From sequence record PQ850608.1: a DNA stretch of 64,000 nt. One strand, written 5' to 3'. Positions 14,264-60,575 of this stretch are shown piece by piece. Position 1 is the stretch's first letter. Each line of letters opens with the position of its first letter. The position numbers and the translations under genes are program-made. The stretch is from Escherichia phage HermannAdler_Bas98. A model generated the notes under the pieces. The model was not told the DNA's origin. It worked only from the letters and a program-made list of their open reading frames with translations, and did no database searches.

Positions 14264-14731
14264 ATGATTAACGTTTCCGGTTTTGGCGCTTCGATTCGTT
14301 TGGTAGCATCAAACACTTTCCCTAATGGTGTGACCCTTTCTGATTTTGCAGATGATGCTGATCCGATTGACGCGCCGGACCTGCAAATCTCTGAGGCTGC
14401 AATGGGCCTTAACGGTGACTTAGTAGTGTGGAACCGTGCAAACCCGCTTGAAGTAGGTGTGAACATCATCCCTACTTCTGAAAGTGATGTCAACTTGGAC
14501 GTTCTTGCAGCCGCAAACCGCGTAGGCAAGCGCAAGAACTCCGCAAAAGACGTGATCACACTTGTGCTGACTTATCCTTCTGGAATGGTTATCACGCTAA
14601 ACAAAGGCACCTTGACAACTGGTTCAGTAATTCCTGGCATCCAGTCTCAAGGTCGTGTGAAAACACGTCAATATCGCTTCAAGTTTGAGAACGTAGTCAA
14701 AACTGGCGTGAGCAACCAAGAGATTTTATAA
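14264..14731 (+). CDS. Tail tube-like protein (paralog 1)
   Basis: 155 aa; N-terminus MINVSGFGASIRLVA...; clear paralog of 15682-16179; follows sheath-like gene. Confidence 0.55.
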   Translation: MINVSGFGASIRLVASNTFPNGVTLSDFADDADPIDAPDLQISEAAMGLNGDLVVWNRANPLEVGVNIIPTSESDVNLDVLAAANRVGKRKNSAKDVITLVLTYPSGMVITLNKGTLTTGSVIPGIQSQGRVKTRQYRFKFENVVKTGVSNQEIL

Positions 14732-15681: not shown

Positions 15682-16179
15682 ATGGTCAATATTAGTGGAT
15701 TTGGCACAAGCATTAGAATTGTCGCTCTTCAATCTTTTCCTGTTGGGCTGAATATCAGTTCTTTGTCTGATGACCAGGATTCGCTAATTATTGAGGAAGT
15801 TGAATCAGTAGGTTATCAACTTACTTACGACGGCGGCATTTGCATATACGACAAAGCCGCCGTCGTTCGCGTATCCATTGCGGTCATTCCAAACACTGAA
15901 GATGACATAAATCTTAAGCTTTTATTATCTGCCCGTAAAGGTGGATTCAAGTGGTTGCCAATTCAGGATGTGACATCGATGCTCATTACATATCCTGACG
16001 GTGGAAGGGTGGCATTCTCTAACGGAACGATAATCAGCGGTCCGCTTGGTGACTCCATAGAGCAATCAGGCCGTCGCAAGACAAACCGATACACATTTGT
16101 GTTTGCCAGCTACGGTGGCGCACAGAGCACGTCTCAAATTGCCAAGGGCGTGGTGCAAAGCATATTGGGGTCCATTTAA
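15682..16179 (+). CDS. Tail tube-like protein (paralog 2)
   Basis: 165 aa; N-terminus MVNISGFGTSIRIVA... and shared motifs (ITYPDG, RYTFVF vs ITLNKG, RQYRFKF) with 14264-14731. Confidence 0.55.
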   Translation: MVNISGFGTSIRIVALQSFPVGLNISSLSDDQDSLIIEEVESVGYQLTYDGGICIYDKAAVVRVSIAVIPNTEDDINLKLLLSARKGGFKWLPIQDVTSMLITYPDGGRVAFSNGTIISGPLGDSIEQSGRRKTNRYTFVFASYGGAQSTSQIAKGVVQSILGSI

Positions 16180-44916: not shown

Positions 44917-46101
44917 TTAACGCGCTTTCAAATCACGGTACACGGTCAGATTCTTCTTAGCACGGGTGATAGCGGTGTACATCATCTTGGAGTACGGAAC
45001 GCCGCGCAGGATTTCTTCCAGCACGCACACATTGTCCCACTCGCTGCCTTGCGATTTGTGCACCGTGATGACATAGCCATAGTCCATGCCTCCAACAGCG
45101 CGTTGCGCTTCTTTGCGCACTTCCTGATCAGTAGAGAAGGAAAGAGGATTGATCTTCACCTTTATATCTTTACCATCAGTTAATGAACGTAAGTTGACAT
45201 ACATTATTTCATTCGACTCATCTTCATCCCTTTCGAAGTCCGGCACTGGCTCATAGCTAATAACAATCCCTTGCTCGCCATTACAGAATCCTGGCCCGTG
45301 TTGGTTGAAGGTGCAAATAACCTTCTCACCGATTCCTGGCATTGGCGTTATACGTCCGCTCACTTGCCGTAATAATGAATTCCATTTATCTTTTGTGCTA
45401 TTATAGGAGCAAATAATTTGATCATCTTCGCCCATGAATTTCTTCAATGCAGTAACGCGCGGCGATTCTGCCAATACTTTGACGTCATCGTATTCACGCG
45501 GAGGAAGGCGGTTGCCTTGGCGCACGAAGAAGGAGGCGCGGATTATATTGGACTCTTTCCCTTGCCGCATGATTTCTGTTAACAGTACGTCAACGGCATC
45601 TTCAGTAAAGTAGGCGGCGGCTTTTACCGGAGGGACTTGTCCAATGTCGCCTAATGCCAGGACAGGGATGCGGTGATCAAGAAGGCGCTCTGTGTCCCAC
45701 TCGCCAACCATCGACGCTTCATCGAGTACAACAAGATGCGGCCTTTCATCCAGCTTTGACTTTCTCGAAAAGATTGGCTCATTGTCGTCATTTACGCCGC
45801 GCACGTTATAGATGAACTGGTGAAGGGTCTTAGCGCCACGACAGCCTTTTTGCTTTAATCGGCTTGCAGCCTTTCCGGTCGGCGCAATATAGATAGCTCC
45901 ATACTCACCGACACAACGGCGCACAATCTCGCGAGCAATAGAGGTTTTACCAGTCCCTGCATAGCCAGCAATGAAAAACACGCGCTTCGTCGTTTTACCG
46001 TCCTGCAATCGCTTGTACCATGCAACGGCTTTCTCGATGGCGTCGATTTGTTGCGCGTTAAACTGAATCACTGGCTCATCATTAAATTCTGGAATGTTCA
46101 T
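44917..46101 (-). CDS. RecD/Dda-like superfamily 1 DNA helicase
   Basis: Walker A GYAGTGKTS, Walker B VVLDEASMV, C-terminal TVHKSQGSEWD motif. Confidence 0.8.
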   Translation of the reverse strand: MNIPEFNDEPVIQFNAQQIDAIEKAVAWYKRLQDGKTTKRVFFIAGYAGTGKTSIAREIVRRCVGEYGAIYIAPTGKAASRLKQKGCRGAKTLHQFIYNVRGVNDDNEPIFSRKSKLDERPHLVVLDEASMVGEWDTERLLDHRIPVLALGDIGQVPPVKAAAYFTEDAVDVLLTEIMRQGKESNIIRASFFVRQGNRLPPREYDDVKVLAESPRVTALKKFMGEDDQIICSYNSTKDKWNSLLRQVSGRITPMPGIGEKVICTFNQHGPGFCNGEQGIVISYEPVPDFERDEDESNEIMYVNLRSLTDGKDIKVKINPLSFSTDQEVRKEAQRAVGGMDYGYVITVHKSQGSEWDNVCVLEEILRGVPYSKMMYTAITRAKKNLTVYRDLKAR

Positions 46102-46587: not shown

Positions 46588-47670
46588 ATGGCTAGTTTAA
46601 GAGAAGAAGCAAAAATAATCGAAGAGTTTTTGACGGAACTCCAAAGAGGCATTCCAGAAGACGAACGCGTCATGACCGTGTTTGCGCCTGAAGCGACAGT
46701 GCAGACTGACGAGCGCGGCAAGAAGATCAACAGCAGCTTCTGGCCTAAGCCTTGGAAGTTGGGCAAGTCGCTCATGCAGCACCAAAACGGCTATGCGTGC
46801 ATCAGTTCAATGCGTAAGTCTCCCAACCCAAAGACGGGTGAGATGCGATACTGGCGTACAGAGTCGGCCTTTGGTCACGGCATGGCGATGATGGTCGACG
46901 ACATCGGTCACGGTAAAGGGTCCAAAGGCGATTTAGATTTGGAATTCTTTTTTGAGCGACTGAAGCCGACTGTCATCGTCGAGACTTCACCGAACAACCA
47001 CCAGCTTTGGTACTTCTTTAAAGAACCGATTGACCATCTTATTCAGTTCAAAGCGTTCCTTGGGTCTTTCGTTAACATGGTACTCAAGAAGGGCGGCGAC
47101 AACACGATTAAAGACGTAACGCGCGTGGGCCGTGTTCCTGGGTGCATCAACAACAAGCGTGTGACTCACGACGGCCCCTATAAATATGTCGATGAGAACG
47201 GCGACCCGTTCCGCTGCCGACTTGTCCATGCAGACTACTCATTGCGCTACACCATCGAAGACATTTGTCAGGCATTTGGCTTTCACGTCGTCATGCCGCA
47301 AAAGCGTGAGATTCAAATTGACGTCGATGAATACAAGTATGATGCTGTTTGGTATAAAATAGCCCAGCAGATTCTATCGCGCAACAAAATGGGTGAAGGG
47401 TCTGATGGCGACGTCATCGAGAACATGTCAGGCAAGTGCCGCATAATCTGTCCTTGGGGTGAAGAACACACCAACGGCGACCCGTATGGCGCTTACTTTC
47501 GCGGCCCTATTCCTGGTGCAGAACATGAGTTTGTGTTCGGTTGCGCCCACGACTGTCACCGGAAAGGGGAAGGCAAGAAAGGTTGGACTGCTTTTGTTGA
47601 AGCAATCGTCATGCCTTATATTGAGAATCAACTTGACATGATAAATCGTCGTGCAGGTGGCATAAAATAG
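46588..47670 (+). CDS. Primase-like protein (archaeo-eukaryotic primase-type suspected) with C-terminal Cys/His cluster
   Basis: Acidic DxD-type motif MMVDDIGHG, SPNNHQLWY block, C-terminal CPWGEEH...CAHDCH metal-binding cluster; adjacent to VirE-like P-loop protein. Confidence 0.45.
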   Translation: MASLREEAKIIEEFLTELQRGIPEDERVMTVFAPEATVQTDERGKKINSSFWPKPWKLGKSLMQHQNGYACISSMRKSPNPKTGEMRYWRTESAFGHGMAMMVDDIGHGKGSKGDLDLEFFFERLKPTVIVETSPNNHQLWYFFKEPIDHLIQFKAFLGSFVNMVLKKGGDNTIKDVTRVGRVPGCINNKRVTHDGPYKYVDENGDPFRCRLVHADYSLRYTIEDICQAFGFHVVMPQKREIQIDVDEYKYDAVWYKIAQQILSRNKMGEGSDGDVIENMSGKCRIICPWGEEHTNGDPYGAYFRGPIPGAEHEFVFGCAHDCHRKGEGKKGWTAFVEAIVMPYIENQLDMINRRAGGIK

Positions 47671-48979: not shown

Positions 48980-50650
48980 ATGTCAATTAATAATGACAAT
49001 CTTCCAGAGGATACAGGTGATGAATTTGGTGCAATCTTTGACGAAATTCAAGATGCAGGCGTTTCGGAAGAAATGCAGGCAGCAGAGCAGCAAGGCACCA
49101 GAGCTAAAATCAGCCTTCAACACAAAGCCGTTGAAAAAGATTCAGAGCGCATGGAATGCTACGGTGAAGAAGACTTGGTTGAAAGAGCACGCTTGCTCGC
49201 CTCACTTCAGGTAATCAAGTTCCCTCACTACAAGCCTACCAAAGATGACTTCGTTCTACAGGCAGACCGGACGAGTGACATGAACCGTTATGCGGTTTTC
49301 GACGCGTTGTTTGATAAGGGAAGTGGCGTTGTTCCATTCCCTCACAAAGATACTTTTCGTGGGCGCTTAGTCGACCATCGCGGCGAAACTTTCACCGACC
49401 GGACGTTGGAAGTCACAGAGATAGTTGCCGCTGTCGACGCAGCAGGTCTGTCCAACCCAAACTCACGTCAGGTAGCTCAATCCTATAAGGAATGGGCTAT
49501 GCGTTATCAGCGTGACGACCTGATGGACTTCTTCTACAAGAAGCTGCCTGAATGGGACGGTACTGCGCGCATTGAGAAATACCTTATCGAGCTATTCCGA
49601 CCGTTCGATACAGAGTTAAACCGACAAATCGGTGTGTATTTTTGGCTATCGCTCTACAACCGACTGACCAACCCTGGCTGTCAAGCGCCAATCTCCATCG
49701 CGCTCATCGGCGGCCAGAACGCAGGGAAGAGTTATTTTAGCAAGCTACTTTGCGAAGCTATTATGAACGACCGCCACGCAACACCGATTCCGTTGAACTT
49801 AGCCGCGCAGAACTTCAACCCGTTCTTGCGAGCTATTACGGGTCGCTCAATTATCGCGAACGTCGGCGAGATGACAGGCTTTAAAAAGGCCGACATCGAA
49901 AACATGAAAGCATTCCTGACTAAGACGGAAGATGACCTGGACTTCAAATTTGAAGATACTCAGGTTAAACCACGCCAGTGGATTGCTATCATGGACGGCA
50001 ACGAATACGCAGGCATGCAGCGTGATGACACGGGCAACCGTCGTGTGTATCCTATCTTTGTTGGCCAACTCGCTGACAAGGACGGGCAACCGAACTGGTC
50101 GAAAGATTTCCAAGCTGACCTTTCCACTTTGAAAGAAGACGTTTGGCAGTTGATGGCTGAGTGCGCTGCATGGATGGAGAAGCACGGCGAAGCAGGCTAT
50201 AACGCGTTTGTTGGTGAAACATCTCGCATGCTTACTGAGTTCAGTAAAAACGAAATGGAACGTGCACGCGGCGTTATTCGTGATGAGATGGTTGACAACG
50301 ACCTTGTTGAAGTCGTCATCACCGCGCCTTATGACCGACATCACAGCGGACGCTGGCACATCACCAGTGGTGCTATTGCTATGGGATTCAGAGCGAAGTG
50401 CGGCAAGTCGCCTTTCTCTCGTACCCTTGCGCCGCACATGTCGAAGCTTGGTTTTGAGCCTGCGACCTATCGCAACCAGCGCGGTTACTTTACGCCGCTG
50501 ATTAAGAATGAAGCAGGGGAATACATTTCCGACTTGATGACCATCTTAGCGTATCTTATCCGTGATGAGTCTGACCCTGAAGATATTGAATTCTTGAAGA
50601 AGGTTATCGAGCGTAAACGTTCTTTGGGAAGAGATAAGGATGAATTCTGA
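48980..50650 (+). CDS. VirE-like / primase-associated P-loop NTPase (putative replicative helicase)
   Basis: Walker A IGGQNAGKS; 556 aa; RBS AGGAGG; adjacency to primase-like gene. Confidence 0.55.
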   Translation: MSINNDNLPEDTGDEFGAIFDEIQDAGVSEEMQAAEQQGTRAKISLQHKAVEKDSERMECYGEEDLVERARLLASLQVIKFPHYKPTKDDFVLQADRTSDMNRYAVFDALFDKGSGVVPFPHKDTFRGRLVDHRGETFTDRTLEVTEIVAAVDAAGLSNPNSRQVAQSYKEWAMRYQRDDLMDFFYKKLPEWDGTARIEKYLIELFRPFDTELNRQIGVYFWLSLYNRLTNPGCQAPISIALIGGQNAGKSYFSKLLCEAIMNDRHATPIPLNLAAQNFNPFLRAITGRSIIANVGEMTGFKKADIENMKAFLTKTEDDLDFKFEDTQVKPRQWIAIMDGNEYAGMQRDDTGNRRVYPIFVGQLADKDGQPNWSKDFQADLSTLKEDVWQLMAECAAWMEKHGEAGYNAFVGETSRMLTEFSKNEMERARGVIRDEMVDNDLVEVVITAPYDRHHSGRWHITSGAIAMGFRAKCGKSPFSRTLAPHMSKLGFEPATYRNQRGYFTPLIKNEAGEYISDLMTILAYLIRDESDPEDIEFLKKVIERKRSLGRDKDEF

Positions 50651-53873: not shown

Positions 53874-54191
53874 ATGATTTACTTAGGAATGGACGAAGAT
53901 GCGCACAAAGACCTTTCAAGGGTGCCAAACGTTAAGTTAGACACAGCCGTACACATCAAGCCTTGGCCAATCGTCCACCCAAACGTAGTTGTACCAGTCG
54001 CGCCTGGCACGCGTTACGTGGCCATTGATGACGACGGAGTCATTCACTGTTATTCGGAAAAACCAAAGTACATAGAGCAATATCACGGTTGGTTCTTGGA
54101 TGAGCGTGCAATGGCGCGTTACTGCGGCGAAGTCGGTCTGGAAGGCTGGGGATTCAAGGCTAGTGAATCGTGTGTCGAGGTGCAATTATGA
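53874..54191 (+). CDS. Hypothetical protein
   Basis: 105-aa ORF behind RBS GAGGTG. Confidence 0.45.
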   Translation: MIYLGMDEDAHKDLSRVPNVKLDTAVHIKPWPIVHPNVVVPVAPGTRYVAIDDDGVIHCYSEKPKYIEQYHGWFLDERAMARYCGEVGLEGWGFKASESCVEVQL

Positions 54192-54406
54192 ATGCCGCGC
54201 TGGGTAAGCTGTCTTTCAACAAGCGTAATGAGCTGAGAATGGTGTCGCGCTTTCAACAAACATATTCATCACTAATAAAGATTACAAATAAGGCCGACTC
54301 TCGTGTTTGCTCTAAAGAAGAATGGGAAGAATTGAACGAGCGTCGTAAACAATTACAACATGCCGCATTCAAGCTGCAGCAATATGCTATGGAGTATGCA
54401 AAATGA
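54188..54406 (+). CDS. Hypothetical small protein
   Basis: Start at Met7 of track ORF. Confidence 0.4.
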   Translation: MNAALGKLSFNKRNELRMVSRFQQTYSSLIKITNKADSRVCSKEEWEELNERRKQLQHAAFKLQQYAMEYAK

Positions 54407-54687
54407 AGATGCAAAGATGTCCCCATTGCTTGTCCACGATGCAGCTTACTGCTGAAGAATATTTACATCACGTTAACGTTTGTGAGGCTAATCCTGAAAA
54501 CTCGACGCGTTACTATTATCATTATCACGCAGAAGCGGAAGATGGATCAGGCGCAACAGGCATCGTCACCACTAAAGAAATGGTGATAACTAAAAAGGCA
54601 TATGAAAGCTTGCTGGAGACGATTAAAGAAGTTTCTGGCAAAGAAATCACCTGTATTAAATCTTTATCTTTCTTGCACGAGGTATAA
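54403..54687 (+). CDS. Small CxxC zinc-ribbon-like protein (paralog A)
   Basis: MKMQRCPHCLSTMQLTAEEYLHHVNVCEANPENS; paralogous N-terminus to the next gene. Confidence 0.45.
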   Translation: MKMQRCPHCLSTMQLTAEEYLHHVNVCEANPENSTRYYYHYHAEAEDGSGATGIVTTKEMVITKKAYESLLETIKEVSGKEITCIKSLSFLHEV

Positions 54688-54688
54688 A

Positions 54689-55072
54689 ATGAGAATGAAG
54701 CGTTGCCCTTACTGCCACGATGTGATGCATCTTCCACACGAAGAGTTTGTGCAGCACATGACTAACTGTGATAAGAATCCTAATAGCGAAAGCCAACTTG
54801 AAGAAAGAATGTTTCTTGTGTCATTCAAAGCTTCTGCTTATGAAGTGCAACGGGCTTACGGCGCACCAAGTACGATTTACTGTCCAACAACATTGAGAAG
54901 CGACATCGACTCAATTCAGCTTGCGGCCTGGATTAACGTTAAGGAAGGCATCACGCCGCACTTTATTGCGCGCATCCAATCTCAGATTCTACAAATGAAG
55001 CGCGAATACAACCGTGACATCACTGAAGTGAAGGTGCTGTCTATCACGCCGATGAATAAGGAGTTGCCGTGA
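54689..55072 (+). CDS. Small CxxC zinc-ribbon-like protein (paralog B)
   Basis: MRMKRCPYCHDVMHLPHEEFVQHMTNCDKNPNSES; start at Met30 of track ORF, 1 nt after upstream stop. Confidence 0.45.
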   Translation: MRMKRCPYCHDVMHLPHEEFVQHMTNCDKNPNSESQLEERMFLVSFKASAYEVQRAYGAPSTIYCPTTLRSDIDSIQLAAWINVKEGITPHFIARIQSQILQMKREYNRDITEVKVLSITPMNKELP

Positions 55073-55329
55073 ACAAGGGTCCGATGACTAAGTTAGCCGT
55101 TGCCGCGCGGAAGCTTCGACAAGCCGTTAATGGGTCGCGGCCCGTGGCGTTAACACTCGACGATGCAAAGGCACTGGTAGAGCTACTCGACGAGCACAAC
55201 CGACGCAAGAATCTGGAGAACACATTACGCTGGCGCGTTACTCCGAAAGGGCGGGAGAGCGAAAAGAAAGCTTACTTGCGGCGCAAACTAAGGTCGGTCG
55301 GCCTTCACGAAGAGGCGAAGAATATTTAA
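55069..55329 (+). CDS. Hypothetical small basic protein
   Basis: 86-aa ORF followed by terminator. Confidence 0.4.
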   Translation: MNKGPMTKLAVAARKLRQAVNGSRPVALTLDDAKALVELLDEHNRRKNLENTLRWRVTPKGRESEKKAYLRRKLRSVGLHEEAKNI

Positions 55330-55331
55330 TT

Positions 55332-55365
55332 CAAAAAGGTGAGCTAAATGCTTGCCTTTTTATTT
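55332..55365 (+). terminator. Rho-independent terminator (repeated module, copy 2)
   Basis: Same 30-nt hairpin core as 53793-53828, followed by TTTTTATTTGCCTG. Confidence 0.6.
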
Positions 55366-55401
55366 GCCTGTATTATACTTAGTTCATCAAGCAAAGGAGA
55401 A

Positions 55402-55710
55402 ATGATTATGAGTTACGACGAAAGGTTTGGCAGAAGCGGATTATTTCATGACGCTGTACACAAAGACAGCAAAGATGTTGTCTGCGCATTCAAGGTTGAT
55501 TCTTACGGTACGCTGAAACCATTTAAGGTCGGCGAAACATACAAGCTGTTTCACGGATGGTTGACGCGTCGCAACAACTTGCCTGACATGGAAGTCTGGT
55601 GGATAGAATACAAGGGTCAGGCTCATCGTTGCAAGGTTGTAGAGGTGCGCGGCGTGGAATACTATCAATCTGTTATCAGCGGCTTTGTTTTTAAAGAGGG
55701 TGAGCTATGA
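55402..55710 (+). CDS. Hypothetical protein
   Basis: Start behind RBS AAAGGAGA. Confidence 0.45.
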   Translation: MIMSYDERFGRSGLFHDAVHKDSKDVVCAFKVDSYGTLKPFKVGETYKLFHGWLTRRNNLPDMEVWWIEYKGQAHRCKVVEVRGVEYYQSVISGFVFKEGEL

Positions 55711-55892
55711 GTACCGAAGTCCACAACGCATCAGCCTTGGTCAGCTTTTACCGTAACAAAGGCGTGTCACTCGTTAAAACGCCGCAAGGCATGCTGTTCT
55801 TTGGCACGCGCTTCCTTAAGGCTTCGGAGCGTGAAACGCTGTCCAAGTTCGACCAGAAAACATTACACGCAGTTTGGAGAAGACAACCATGA
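55707..55892 (+). CDS. Hypothetical small protein
   Basis: 61-aa ORF coupled to neighbours. Confidence 0.3.
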   Translation: MSTEVHNASALVSFYRNKGVSLVKTPQGMLFFGTRFLKASERETLSKFDQKTLHAVWRRQP

Positions 55893-56125
55893 CATCCAAC
55901 CTTAAGGCCCGTTTATTATTCATCAAGCCGCATGTGCCGTATAAGATTAGTAAGCGCACCTGGCTTAACATTTACAACCGCAGCGGCGACCGTTGTTTGT
56001 ACAAGGCGAAGCGGCGCAAGAAGGTATATTTAAAGGCTGTGATGTCGCAGCCAGTCGATGCATTCATCGTCGGCGAAAATGAATTATCAATCGGCTATCA
56101 AATTGAACTCGGAGTAAAGAAATGA
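55889..56125 (+). CDS. Hypothetical small basic protein
   Basis: Start at Met6 of track ORF. Confidence 0.35.
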   Translation: MTSNLKARLLFIKPHVPYKISKRTWLNIYNRSGDRCLYKAKRRKKVYLKAVMSQPVDAFIVGENELSIGYQIELGVKK

Positions 56126-56625
56126 AAATCGAACAACTCGAAGCAGTATTGGAAATGGCTGTTAAAGCAGGCGCAATCAAAAGCTGGCATCGCGAGAAGT
56201 CGGATGACGCCGCGCACTTTTGTCGCAACTTCTATATCGTTGGCAACCTTAATGACCACTACACCATCGAGTGGTATACTAATATGATGACGCTTAAGTC
56301 GCGCACCATGGAGCTTTGGTGCAATGACATTTGCTTATCCAACACTCATCCATCCTACGACGTGGCATTGGCATTCTATTACGGAAGTCATCAACCAGTA
56401 GCCCACATTGGTGAGAAGCACGAACACCTGAAGGCGGGACCAGAAGATTCAATGGAAGGTTGGATTGAATGGTCTGGCGGCAAGAATCCGGTGCCTGGTA
56501 AAAAGGTCATGTTGATGTGGAGGAATGGCGCAAAGTCATCATACGCTTTCAATTCAAAAGGATACATATGGACTCACGACGGAAGCACCCATGACATCAT
56601 TGCTTATCGCGTCGTGGAGGAATAA
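56122..56625 (+). CDS. Hypothetical protein with conserved C-terminal W-GG-NPVPGK domain
   Basis: C-terminal about 55 aa (WIEWSGGKNPVPGKKV...IIAYRVVEE) shared with 57507-57932. Confidence 0.45.
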   Translation: MKIEQLEAVLEMAVKAGAIKSWHREKSDDAAHFCRNFYIVGNLNDHYTIEWYTNMMTLKSRTMELWCNDICLSNTHPSYDVALAFYYGSHQPVAHIGEKHEHLKAGPEDSMEGWIEWSGGKNPVPGKKVMLMWRNGAKSSYAFNSKGYIWTHDGSTHDIIAYRVVEE

Positions 56626-56966
56626 TGGAAGAGCAAGAAGGCCGTGAGCTAACGTTCGATGAACAGATGGCCGAACTTCAGCGCACATCGCCGCTGCGCG
56701 GTAAGGTTGTTGACATCGAGGCAAGCGAATCCAACCTCACCCAGTGGCGGCTCATGTGCACCAGCGCAGGCAAAGAGTTGTCAAGCTTCAAAGTCGGTCA
56801 GTCTTATTTGCTTTATGAGGCAAAAGGACTTATTATTGATGGAAGGCAAATCGTCTTCACTGTAGTCAGCGGAATGCGTTGGTTCGTGAAGCGTGATGTC
56901 GAGGGTCGTGACATGTTTGTCGCAGGCTTTCCAGAAACAAGATTCCAATTGGAGAAGGTTAAATGA
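56625..56966 (+). CDS. Hypothetical protein
   Basis: 113-aa ORF, ATG overlapping upstream stop. Confidence 0.45.
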   Translation: MEEQEGRELTFDEQMAELQRTSPLRGKVVDIEASESNLTQWRLMCTSAGKELSSFKVGQSYLLYEAKGLIIDGRQIVFTVVSGMRWFVKRDVEGRDMFVAGFPETRFQLEKVK

Positions 56967-57295
56967 AATTGAAATGGTATGTGGACCCTGAGCCGACAGG
57001 CTCATACAGGTCATTCCAACGTCGCGGCTGGCCGATTTGTTACAGCGGCAATCCCGATAAAGAAGACTGCGAGGTGCTTGCCGCGATAGTAAGTCTTAAT
57101 CATGACGGCTATGAAGGCCACTACGCGAGAGCAACCAACCTTCGTCTCAAGGTGCGCATCCATTTCAAGGTCGCAGGCGAGGACCGCACCGGACTCTCCA
57201 AGGAAGAGTTCAGCAGCATTGCCGAAGCAAAGGCATGGCTCAAGGCGTTCTACAAGAACAATCCTAAATTTTATCCAACTAAGGGTGCATTATGA
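56963..57295 (+). CDS. Hypothetical protein
   Basis: 110-aa ORF. Confidence 0.45.
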   Translation: MKLKWYVDPEPTGSYRSFQRRGWPICYSGNPDKEDCEVLAAIVSLNHDGYEGHYARATNLRLKVRIHFKVAGEDRTGLSKEEFSSIAEAKAWLKAFYKNNPKFYPTKGAL

Positions 57296-57510
57296 CCGAT
57301 AATCAATACGCAGTCGGGCAACGTGACATCGAGCAACTCGACGAGGGCGGCTATTATACGCGCCACATCTATGCCATGACTCATGAAGGACTTTACAGCA
57401 AGTCGGACATCGCCGCTGAACTGGCCCATCGTGACTTGCAAATTGACCTTCTCAAGATAGAAATTCAAAACTTACGCAACACCCTGTTAAACACCTGGAG
57501 CTTAAAATGA
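57292..57510 (+). CDS. Hypothetical small protein
   Basis: 72-aa ORF. Confidence 0.4.
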   Translation: MTDNQYAVGQRDIEQLDEGGYYTRHIYAMTHEGLYSKSDIAAELAHRDLQIDLLKIEIQNLRNTLLNTWSLK

Positions 57511-57932
57511 TACAGCGTTACGACCTGACATATGACGTGGCATCAGACGATTTCGCCGTCACTCCCGTTCCAGAAAGTCATGAAGGACGTTTTGTTGCAT
57601 ATGAGGACTATGAATCACTACTCAAGCTTAATGAGTCGCTAACAAAAGAGATTGAGCAATACCGCGAGCGCATCAAAGCCGCTGAAGATGTTATCAAGCT
57701 TTTTAGCGAGGCTGTTGAGAAATACAAGGAGCGCAACGTGCCGATTAAGGAGGAAGCGTGGACCGTGTGGTTTGGTGGCGTGAATCCGGTGCCTGGGAAG
57801 ATGGTTGAGTTTGAATTACTCAACGGTTATAAATCAAAAGGTGCTGTTCCTTCGGATAGTTTGACATGGGATAAAGTCACAAGCCCGACTGGTGCAAAGA
57901 TTGTTGCTTATCGGGTCGTTAAGGAGGGGTGA
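57507..57932 (+). CDS. Hypothetical protein with conserved C-terminal W-GG-NPVPGK domain
   Basis: C-terminal WTVWFGGVNPVPGKMV...IVAYRVVKEG paralogous to C-terminus of 56122-56625. Confidence 0.45.
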   Translation: MIQRYDLTYDVASDDFAVTPVPESHEGRFVAYEDYESLLKLNESLTKEIEQYRERIKAAEDVIKLFSEAVEKYKERNVPIKEEAWTVWFGGVNPVPGKMVEFELLNGYKSKGAVPSDSLTWDKVTSPTGAKIVAYRVVKEG

Positions 57933-58381
57933 TGGGTAACAAGCTTATCGCCGCTGGTTGGGCCATACCGAAGTGGGCTCATCGTGCGCACTACTTTGAT
58001 GAAGGAGAAGTGCAAAGCCTTTGCGGTCGCGCAACATACTTTGGTGATGAGCGCGTCAGCGGCGATTACATCGACTCGCTTTTAGGCAAAGGTGATTGCA
58101 AGAAATGTCAGGATATATTAAGAGATATTCTAACGCAAAAAGGACTGCTTGAGCTTGATGAGTCGGAGGAAGTAATAGAGCTTAAGCTTGAAGCCAATCA
58201 CCTTATTAATATGTTCAAGAATTATTACTCAACGAATATGCGCTCAAAGATGCGTGAGGAAGTAATAAAAGAGGTGCTCACTTACAATCCGTTAAGGATG
58301 AATAAAACTAAACTGAAGAAGTTTAATGCAATAGTAAGAAAGGAATTTAGACGGCTTGGAGTGAAGAATTTTATATTTTAA
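57929..58381 (+). CDS. Hypothetical protein
   Basis: 150-aa ORF followed by strong terminator. Confidence 0.45.
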   Translation: MMGNKLIAAGWAIPKWAHRAHYFDEGEVQSLCGRATYFGDERVSGDYIDSLLGKGDCKKCQDILRDILTQKGLLELDESEEVIELKLEANHLINMFKNYYSTNMRSKMREEVIKEVLTYNPLRMNKTKLKKFNAIVRKEFRRLGVKNFIF

Positions 58382-58396
58382 TTATGATTAATGTTA

Positions 58397-58422
58397 AGAG
58401 GGCCGATTGGCCCTTTTTATTT
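58397..58422 (+). terminator. Rho-independent terminator
   Basis: AGAGGGCCGATTGGCCCTTTTTATTTGCCTG: perfect GC stem plus U-run; same downstream TTTTTATTTGCCTG as at 55352. Confidence 0.7.
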
Positions 58423-58899
58423 GCCTGTGTAATGGGAGGCTTTTGTGGTTATTTACGATTCAAGGCTGTAATTTAAGAGAGCGAAAATATTATAATAATT
58501 TATCAAGATTATTGCATATTGTGGCAATCAACGTTTATACGTATTTATGACAGTTTAATCCACTAAATAATACGGATAGAACAGTGAGGAAAATACAGCG
58601 GTGTATTTTAGTGTAAATATTGAATCAAAAATAAATAATTATGGTGCTATTATATACGCAGATTGTTTGTAATTTATAGGATATTTTATCGTGGAGTATT
58701 GGCTAACGGTGCGTTAGCCGTGGGTCTTGGTGCTTGTGGTGTTGATGCTCAGAATTTTAATAATGTTTTTAGTTTTAGTAATCGTAGTCAATGATGATAC
58801 GTATAAGAAAATGAGAGTCACCCCTTCACAGGATATTGTACCGTGGCCCTGTGGTGCGCCGCGCCTGGGATTGCTGGTATACACTGGTGCTATTTTGCC

Positions 58900-59170
58900 G
58901 CGAAGGCAGTCATTCATACGTATCATGACGTATCATTGGGCTATTGATTTATAAGGAAAAATACGCTGATACGGATGATACGGGTGCAAACATAATATAT
59001 ATAGAATTCCAGAAAATTAATTAACTCCATTTTGAATTAATTTAAATTAATTTTTTTCTACATCCTCATACTTATACTAAACTTATATTCATACGTATCA
59101 TCCGTAAGATATAAGTAAAAACAAGGACTTGCGGCAATACGGATGATACGTCATGATACGCTTCGACCAG
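58900..59170. repeat. Iteron array flanking AT-rich spacer (copy B of a duplicated element)
   Basis: ACGTATCATGACGTATCAT, GATACGGATGATACG, CAATACGGATGATACGTCATGATACG around AT-rich core (AATTAATTAACTCCATTTTGAATTAATTTAAATTAATTTTTTT); collinear with 6580-6870. Confidence 0.7.
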
Positions 59171-59364
59171 CCAGCAGCGGCTAAGTCATTGATTTGCATA
59201 GCAAGCGGCGAAAGGGATGGATTTCTTTTATACGTATCAAACAGTACACCACGCACCACGGTCCGCAATCCTATTTGCAATATGATTTGTGTACGTTTAT
59301 AGCCATAATGAACATCAATCTGCACTTGAATATAATGTCCATCCATTGTATAATTCACACTATT

Positions 59365-60575
59365 AATTTGCACTATGGGATTTTGCACTATGAGTCAAGA
59401 TTATGTAGCGATGCCTGAAGACTTTGAAGACCCGCGATTCGCAGAGCACAATCAGGCTTTATTCGATGAGTTCATTGACCTTGTTATTCAGGGTCATGAC
59501 ATGCGCGCAGCTTTTGCACTAGTATTTGGAATGGAAGTTGCAACGGATAACTACACTGGCCAGCGAATCCTTTGCACGCAACGCAATCCATACTACAAGA
59601 TGCGCTTCAAAAAGCGTATGGAAGAGATGCCACTCAAGGATTTGTGGAGCGTAAAAGGTGCAATTCACAATTTGGTCAAGCTTGTGCGTGATCCAGAAGT
59701 CGCGGCGTCAGCCAAGCTTAATGCTATTCGTGAACTGAATATCATCTACGGCATCACGATGATTGATGAAAACGGCAATAGTAAAATGGGCCGTTCTATG
59801 GACGATTTCTACAAGGATTTTGGAGAGGCTGCCAAAGAAGGAGAGCAATTCTCCCGCCACTAGCCAATTTGCACTATAAAACGGCCCTAGAACACATGTT
59901 CTCCACTTCTAGGGCCATCGGTAATACGACGGGGAAGGTCGCACCCATAAACGCGTTAGAAAGTGTATTATTATAAGTCATCTTTTAGTCGCTTTACGTA
60001 ACAATTTACGACCTTCAACCGTCCAATCGAACGACTCCACCAGCAGATTCGCACTATAACCTAAGACGATGCGCCCTTTCTCGTTATCGACCCGCCAACA
60101 AGTCTCGAATAGCATTCGATTTGCACTATTAACTATTGCCGCAACGCGCGTAGGGTAAGCGCAATTTGCACTATGGTCGTAAAGGGATAAGGTGCGACCA
60201 CTTCCGATGGACAATGTAGCGATGAGAATAAGCGTATTCATAAGCCACCAATTTGCACTATGAAAAGCGACCCCGAAGGGCCGCCATTCGATTAGATAAT
60301 CTGGAAGGTGTAGGACTTGTTGCCGAACTCGAAGTTCAAGCGTCCAGCTTCTTTAAGCTTCATGCGGAAGCGAATGTGCTTGCTATCCGGTAATCCCAGC
60401 GCGGCGAAGGCTACGCGGACCGATTTGAACTCGCCTACACCCTCGACCATAACGCCGTTACGGGTGAGACGCTTTTGCGCCACTTCCTTATTATCCCAAC
60501 TTTTTGCAATACCTTCGCTATTCGAACGGCGATGGGAAGGAGTTCCATTTTGCACTACGCAATTTGCACTATCGT
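59365..60575 (+). repeat. Dispersed cluster of 11-bp motif ATTTGCACTAT (at least 8 copies, same orientation)
   Basis: Copies read near 59365, 59381, 59867, 60046 (ATTCGCACTAT variant), 60120, 60166, 60251, 60547 and 60559; several lie inside predicted minus-strand ORFs. Confidence 0.6.
59390..59863 (+). CDS. Hypothetical protein
   Basis: 157 aa from Met6 of track ORF; start codon overlaps an ATTTGCACTAT motif copy. Confidence 0.45.
   Translation: MSQDYVAMPEDFEDPRFAEHNQALFDEFIDLVIQGHDMRAAFALVFGMEVATDNYTGQRILCTQRNPYYKMRFKKRMEEMPLKDLWSVKGAIHNLVKLVRDPEVAASAKLNAIRELNIIYGITMIDENGNSKMGRSMDDFYKDFGEAAKEGEQFSRH

Follow-up and report, generated by a model that had tools for sequence, protein, structure and literature searches.

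The subject of this analysis is a stretch of 64,000 nucleotides of Escherichia phage HermannAdler_Bas98 (sequence record PQ850608.1), referred to hereafter as the window, and in particular two of its small open reading frames (ORFs), termed A and B. The C-termini of the two encoded proteins are almost certainly copies of a single self-folding, beta-rich domain of ~57 residues, which represents a large and uncatalogued family, acts as an independent unit joined to many different partners, and has been added at the C-terminus to the N-terminal domain of A and to the head and stalk of B. An earlier note on this DNA had described the shared C-terminal module on otherwise unrelated proteins and had suggested a common binding domain. 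As set out below, the module is a genuine homologous domain with a mobility of its own, and the suggested role in binding would fit its anatomy.

Two Copies of One Module in the Window

Both ORFs were found on the plus strand at the coordinates given below, with the protein sequences that the earlier note had quoted. Their parts are as follows.

56122..56625, plus strand: ORF A, 167 amino acids (aa), an N-terminal domain followed by a C-terminal module (ORF and alignment; phrog_21861 matches residues 1-104 and the PHROGs of the module residues 102-166)
56122..56436, plus strand: N-terminal domain of ORF A, residues 1-105 (phrog_21861, E=4.6e-53, over the full profile length of 104)
56455..56622, plus strand: module copy A, residues 112-167 (EGWIEWSGGKNPVPGK...W.H...DIIAYRVVEE)
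57507..57932, plus strand: ORF B, 141 aa, a head, a helical stalk and a C-terminal module
57507..57611, plus strand: head of ORF B, residues 1-35, MIQRYDLTYDV...GRFVAYEDY (tblastn matches in other phages)
57612..57752, plus strand: helical stalk and linker of ORF B, residues 36-82 (heptad-like, charged sequence; weak Pfam and PHROG matches)
57753..57929, plus strand: module copy B, residues 83-141 (EAWTVWFGGVNPVPGK...W...KIVAYRVVKEG)

A BLASTP comparison aligned residues 112-167 of A with residues 83-140 of B, with 27 of 58 positions identical (47%, E=8e-12), and the next alignment after the module had an E of 23, bearing out both the common C-terminus and the unrelated N-terminal parts. In a full-sensitivity search of the window in all six frames, a hidden Markov model (HMM) of the module built from 76 sequences recovered only these two copies (E=5.8e-23 for A and 3.5e-18 for B). 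No third copy was found in the window, the next best HMM match having an E>1, and an all-against-all BLAST of the window's ORFs agreed. Since the copies are only ~56% identical at the DNA level, they are old paralogues and not products of a recent duplication. The scaffold residues W7, W10, G12, G13, P16, V23, G30, W44, I54, A56, Y57 and R58 (numbered by profile position) occur in both copies. R28, H46 and D53 are kept in copy A and replaced in copy B (L28, K46, K53), and these are less conserved positions than the scaffold residues that both copies retain.

Anatomy and Predicted Structure

Conservation was assessed in 393 module instances aligned to the profile. The near-invariant residues are W7 (86%), W10 (93%), G12 (92%), G13 (88%), P16 (98%), V23 (82%) and R28 (79%), followed by G30 (73%), W44 (100%), D53 (83%), I54 (91%), A56 (81%), Y57 (92%) and R58 (84%). 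Because the information content is close to nil at profile positions 31-38 and 45-52, these are taken to form two hypervariable loops, which flank the invariant tryptophan W44. The module is acidic, with a mean net charge of -2.9, and the linkers joining tandem copies are mostly 0-5 residues long. R28 and D53 covary across the family with an odds ratio of 22, a value calculated from phylogenetically non-independent sequences, and this pairing would fit a structural salt bridge.

AlphaFold2, supplied with the family alignment, modelled the module of A with a mean predicted local distance difference test score (pLDDT) of 92.1 and a predicted template modelling score (pTM) of 0.76; a two-module protein gave a pLDDT of 90.0 and a pTM of 0.65. 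Each modelled copy opens with a short strand at WxW; a GG-x-x-P turn, a beta-hairpin leading to R-x-G and a 3-10 turn come next, and then the invariant tryptophan, a long loop and the final D-I-V-A-Y-R strand. The existence of stand-alone members of 57-65 aa, together with the pLDDT values for one and two modules, argues that the module folds autonomously.

The model of the A module superposes on the models in the BFVD collection of A-type, B-type and unrelated phage members with template modelling (TM) scores of 0.8-0.9, the individual values being 0.92 for an A-type Wifcevirus protein (FEC19) and 0.87, with a root-mean-square deviation of 1.5 A, for a B-type one (WFC). The earlier note had held that its proposal would fall if further homologues and structural similarity were both wanting; 11,008 homologous clusters were found, and the module models superpose. 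Against solved small beta-barrels of the SH3, Tudor, Sm and KOW types, no significant structural superposition of the module was obtained.

A Large Family with No Curated Description

The module family is very large, resides mostly in phages and prophages, and has no curated description. A tblastn search of 50,697 phage genomes returned 72 records, including unrelated phages of Pseudomonas, Sinorhizobium, Klebsiella, Edwardsiella and Salmonella as well as Vequintavirus-type phages. When an alignment was used to query a set of 5.8 billion proteins, 76 members were recovered, mostly stand-alone proteins of 57-108 aa, none of which had a Pfam domain or any name besides "hypothetical protein". When 1.84 billion cluster representatives were searched with a profile, the family grew to 11,008 proteins at E<=1e-3 (3,957 at E<=1e-10), some with as many as 7-8 copies of the module. 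Finally, a search of bacterial reference genomes with a back-translated consensus motif located 24 sites, 23 of them true modules, mainly in alpha-, beta- and gammaproteobacteria, with a few in metagenome-assembled genomes assigned to Planctomycetota, Verrucomicrobia, Acidobacteria, Saccharibacteria and Actinobacteria.

No Pfam model matched the module in any scanned member, even at E<=1, and NCBIfam likewise gave no match to it. PADLOC matched neither A nor B nor any of the long proteins with multiple modules, and its matches to the protein P0191 were confined to that protein's winged helix-turn-helix (wHTH) region. A sequence search of the PDB with the module profile gave chance matches only (E>=0.16). 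The sole library to contain the module is PHROGs, where both window copies and diverse stand-alone and tandem members match phrog_9174, phrog_26870, phrog_16943 and phrog_11995, all labelled "unknown function". These entries are automatic clusters of whole proteins and not domain definitions, and the module is divided among several of them.

Proteins A and B as Mosaics

Both window proteins are built as mosaics. The N-terminal domain of A, the head of B and the module are each found alone in other phages and are thus independent units. For A, the two parts differ in their conservation: across five Wifcevirus genomes, the N-terminal domain is 85-97% identical and the module 37-92%. In phage AV128, the A-type gene ends right after the N-terminal domain, encoding a protein of 108 aa with no module (locus L015, 2697-3023). 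Moreover, this domain exists as a stand-alone protein of 99 aa in ~70 Phapecoctavirus-type phages (for example phAPEC8_0046, with ~48% identity), in agreement with the 104 positions of phrog_21861.

The head of B (RYDLT...GRFVAYEDY) is kept across Wifcevirus. After it, B-type proteins have a helical stalk, which comes in two alternative sequences, and then a variable module; judging by its heptad-like sequence, the stalk of ORF B is probably a coiled coil. Two modules stand in tandem in the B-type gene of phage ECO71P1 (locus L016, 3955-4551), and that of phage kaset carries an insertion of ~80 aa (locus L017, 5476-6144). Together with the AV128 gene, these architecture variants could serve as ready-made material for genetics. 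By tblastn, the head of B was also detected in phages of Kagunavirus and Phimunavirus, where it stands alone in proteins of 62-83 aa, as well as in Klebsiella 37P2, Salmonella and Enterobacter phages. In Klebsiella phage 37P2 (locus L046, 1001-1396) the head is joined to another, Cys/His-rich C-terminus (HPECDH...CIRCGH), which shows that the head-and-stalk scaffold bears alternative cargo domains, and in the protein P0021 it again occurs together with the module. In all, two to three module-bearing genes are present per Wifcevirus genome.

Rate of Evolution

The ratio of nonsynonymous to synonymous substitution rates (dN/dS) was calculated by the Nei-Gojobori method for ten pairs of sequences. 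Values for the N-terminal domain of A were 0.05-0.16 and those for the module 0.23-0.56 in nine of the ten pairs, the exception being Bas99 versus WFH, with a module dN/dS of 0.09. In the pairs of the window with WFH and with ECO71P1, dS was similar for the N-terminal domain and the module, and it was saturated in every pair with kaset, which indicates allele replacement. Comparison of the loops with the scaffold did not demonstrate positive selection within the module, as dN/dS was <1 in all pairs (maximum, 0.87) and the loops showed a local rise in dS. Evolution of the module is faster than that of the N-terminal partner, by relaxed constraint and recombination.

Architectures and Fusion Partners

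The location of the module varies among family members: it may lie at the N-terminus, in the middle, at the C-terminus, or as a tandem pair (phiM7 gp327 and FBPa8 gp15). Partner domains were identified by a Pfam scan of 140 top representatives, drawn from the best 150 of the 11,008; this set is biased toward multi-copy proteins, and partner frequencies are therefore indicative only. Recurrent fusion of the module to enzymes of the nucleotide pool and to DNA-binding domains was observed. The partners comprised DUF3310 (seven cases), dGTP_diPhyd_N/PF18909 (six), DUF6378 (five), and dATP-dGTP_PPHyd/PF04447 and HD (one each). There were also single cases with RHH_1 and AAA_16, and two matches to Tudor_Coilin that could not be localised. 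In P0191, two winged-helix domains precede two modules. Other partner regions were mostly devoid of annotation.

PHROGs labels DUF3310 "nucleotide kinase", and in the literature it is the SaV domain tied to AbiV sensitivity (PMC8306868). PF18909 and DUF550 have been shown by experiment to hydrolyse deoxynucleoside triphosphates (dNTPs) to the corresponding monophosphates (PMC12884076). Stand-alone members have neighbourhoods made up of runs of small unannotated phage genes, and in one case a sliding clamp, a helicase and DNA methyltransferases adjoin. In all contexts examined, module genes were situated in blocks of small phage genes that are accessory or associated with replication.

Possible Functions of the Module

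A tentative reading, held at somewhat less than even confidence, is that the module could be a portable recognition (binding) module that couples a conserved scaffold to two specificity loops. The scaffold would be made by the three tryptophans, the Gly-Gly pair, the proline, the hydrophobic strand residues and the covarying Arg-Asp pair, and the two hypervariable loops would bear the specificity. A stand-alone module might then act as a blocker by occupying its target, tandem arrays or display on the probably oligomeric stalk of B might allow binding of higher avidity, and a module on an enzyme or a DNA-binding domain might bring the fused part to the target. Because enzymes of the dNTP pool are the commonest recognisable fusion partners, that target probably belongs to the infected cell's metabolism of nucleotides or DNA. 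Such a reading would fit the anatomy of the module, namely its conserved scaffold, its hypervariable loops, its stand-alone and tandem forms, and its many partners.

Several points weigh against recognition as the module's function. The fusion census covers the best 150 of 11,008 representatives, with a bias toward multi-copy proteins, and leaves most partner regions unannotated. Diversifying selection on the loops was considered and dropped, given the dN/dS of <1 throughout and the raised dS, and relaxed constraint with allele exchange would explain the divergence of the module equally well. In addition, the conserved Trp, Tyr and Arg residues could form a ligand pocket instead of a core, and the pTM of the two-module model leaves the relative placement of tandem copies uncertain.

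Binding of a small nucleotide is the main rival, and it is conceivable if rather unlikely that the module serves dNTP-pool enzymes and helix-turn-helix (HTH) or ribbon-helix-helix (RHH) regulators as a sensor or regulatory domain, and is a "sponge" when alone or in tandem. Fusions to a dNTP diphosphohydrolase, to the SaV-like "nucleotide kinase", to HD and to wHTH or RHH domains have the classic layout of one-component systems, the module contains conserved aromatic and Arg residues, and carriage of the family by phages of very different hosts would suit a universal ligand. The stand-alone and multi-copy forms also resemble the known logic of phage sponges. In the strongest form of this idea, the module would be a new and widespread nucleotide-binding unit with a new fold, sequestering a nucleotide (an immune signal or a dNTP-related metabolite, for example) when alone or arrayed, and sensing or capturing the same ligand when joined to a dNTP hydrolase, a kinase-like domain or an HTH regulator. 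We consider this extended version improbable; it would reveal a previously unrecognised family of sponges and sensors.

Homo- or hetero-oligomerisation and direct binding of nucleic acid are less likely than nucleotide binding. Under the former, to which we give little credence, the module would hold its carriers together, A with B for example, with the copies of a tandem array folding back upon one another. The two to three module genes per Wifcevirus genome and the very short tandem linkers are in keeping with such a role, as might be the position of the module on the stalk of B, by analogy with the dimeric C-terminal domains of Ea22 proteins (PMC10834534). However, the abundant stand-alone proteins of 57-65 aa would be of no obvious use as pure oligomerisation units, hypervariable loops are unexpected at a conserved self-interface, and interdomain placement in the two-module model is of low confidence. 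A module that anchors its partners to DNA or RNA is more doubtful still, since its acidity speaks against generic DNA binding and the fusions already have separate DNA-binding domains. Chance or compositional similarity, or ORFs that are not real genes, can be regarded as refuted: the pairwise alignment of the copies is highly significant, the HMM E-values of 1e-18 to 1e-23 stand against a background of >1, the homologues number in the thousands, and all Wifcevirus relatives have both ORFs, annotated, conserved and under purifying selection.

Comparison with Known Systems

In its size, richness in beta structure and conserved aromatic residues, the module is reminiscent of small beta domains that recognise peptides or ligands, such as WW, SH3 and Tudor-like domains, which likewise occur alone, arrayed or on catalytic domains. 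A closer parallel in architecture is DUF551 (PF04448), which has been called a "portable domain"; its settings are the C-terminus of an Ea22 variant, HTH regulators, YfdS and a dATP/dGTP pyrophosphohydrolase (PMC10834534; PMC4776307). Like the module, DUF551 is a small (about 60-70 aa), Trp-rich and beta-rich domain of phages and prophages, and the two occupy the same niches: the C-terminus of a head/coiled-coil protein (in the case of DUF551, Ea22 variant V2; PMC10834534), fusion to HTH regulators and fusion to dNTP pyrophosphohydrolases. Their endings differ, DUF551 closing with THW.PLPxPP and the module with DIVAYR.

The idea that the module is a divergent DUF551 was rejected, as Pfam, hhalign and PHROG tests all spoke against it. 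DUF551 was not matched at E<=1 by A, B or six other members, nor was it among the families of the 140 representatives, and YfdS, run as a control for PF04448, scored 22.2 bits. An hhalign comparison of the module profile with DUF551 returned a probability of 0.4% (E=0.15), the DUF551 alignment being a shallow one of 15 YfdS-like sequences, and the PHROG families of the module and of DUF551 do not overlap. Judged by sequence, then, the module resembles DUF551 in architecture without demonstrable membership. Protein B for its part recalls the variants of lambda Ea22 in layout, with a long helical region between a short N-terminal segment and an acidic C-terminal domain that can be swapped (PMC10834534). 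Assignment of B to the Ead/Ea22-like family (PF13935) was also rejected, there being no Pfam match at E<=1 and just a weak match to phrog_1378.

Significance

Domain shuffling is common among the accessory genes of phages, and in that sense the present finding is ordinary. It also brings to light a large and well-defined domain family with no curated description and no solved relative. Much of the dark matter among small "hypothetical" phage genes may come from a limited set of mobile domains, and the module is one of the larger such sets seen here: its sequence clusters number at least 11,000, a single protein can have up to eight copies, and its hosts range from Enterobacteria to Planctomycetota. 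The family lacks a Pfam or NCBIfam entry and a solved structure; its definition would annotate thousands of proteins together, and its repeated fusion to dNTP-pool enzymes offers a concrete place to seek the module's target.

The Locus and Neighbouring Genes

The window derives from a Wifcevirus-type myophage of E. coli, and a megablast search with positions 55300-58400 retrieved 28 phage records. The top match was the BASEL phage ManiWeber/Bas99, with 96% identity, and all genes beneath this match are annotated "hypothetical protein". As Bas99, the closest relative that can be cultured, grows on engineered E. coli K-12, the A and B genes (Bas99_0084 and Bas99_0088 in that phage) are directly testable; the host strain is a K-12 derivative without cryptic prophages and with its O-antigen restored.

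ORF A and ORF B lie within a long co-directional block on the plus strand, made up of ~25 small ORFs that follow the replication genes. At the start of the block are a RepB-type primase gene (46588-47670, plus strand) and then the gene for a VapE-like protein (48980-50650, plus strand); a superfamily 1 (UvrD/PIF1-like) helicase gene on the minus strand (44917-46101) also flanks it there. The block ends at an AT-rich gap near 58.4-59.3 kb. The gap itself (58400-59300) holds the region's best sigma-70-like promoter matches, on both strands, the GC fraction being 0.39 for 58001-60000, and it is probably a transcription boundary. When the block was scanned for promoters and terminators, the counts did not differ from those in shuffled sequence. 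From their position downstream of the primase and helicase genes in the small-ORF block, early expression of ORFs A and B is plausible.

A second case of module sharing is seen in the same block, where the adjacent plus-strand genes at 54403-54687 and 54689-55072 have a common N-terminal head, M[KR]M[QK]RCP[HY]C..M.L..EE[YF]..H...C..NP, and unlike C-termini. Their heads are 31% identical over 62 aa by BLASTP (E=9e-11), and the CxxC...H...C pattern may bind zinc. The second gene was listed as an ORF of 54602-55072, whose true start is probably the internal Met codon at 54689. Elsewhere in the window, the plus-strand ORFs at 14264-14731 and 15682-16179 are paralogous (33% identity over 141 aa, E=1e-25) and form the sole other paralogue pair to emerge at E<1e-4 when the window's ORFs were compared with one another by BLAST. 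A further candidate pair, 55348-55710 and 56625-56966 (plus strand), had been suggested by a shared FKVG[EQ][ST]Y.L motif; BLASTP produced no alignment at all, and the likeness was set aside as a chance resemblance. Finally, the 105-aa ORF at 53874-54191 (plus strand) matches phrog_1972 and, weakly, phrog_11307. A phrog_11307-like segment is also present in P0141, an 845-aa metagenomic protein with two modules, which hints that this segment is a further portable unit of the same protein network.

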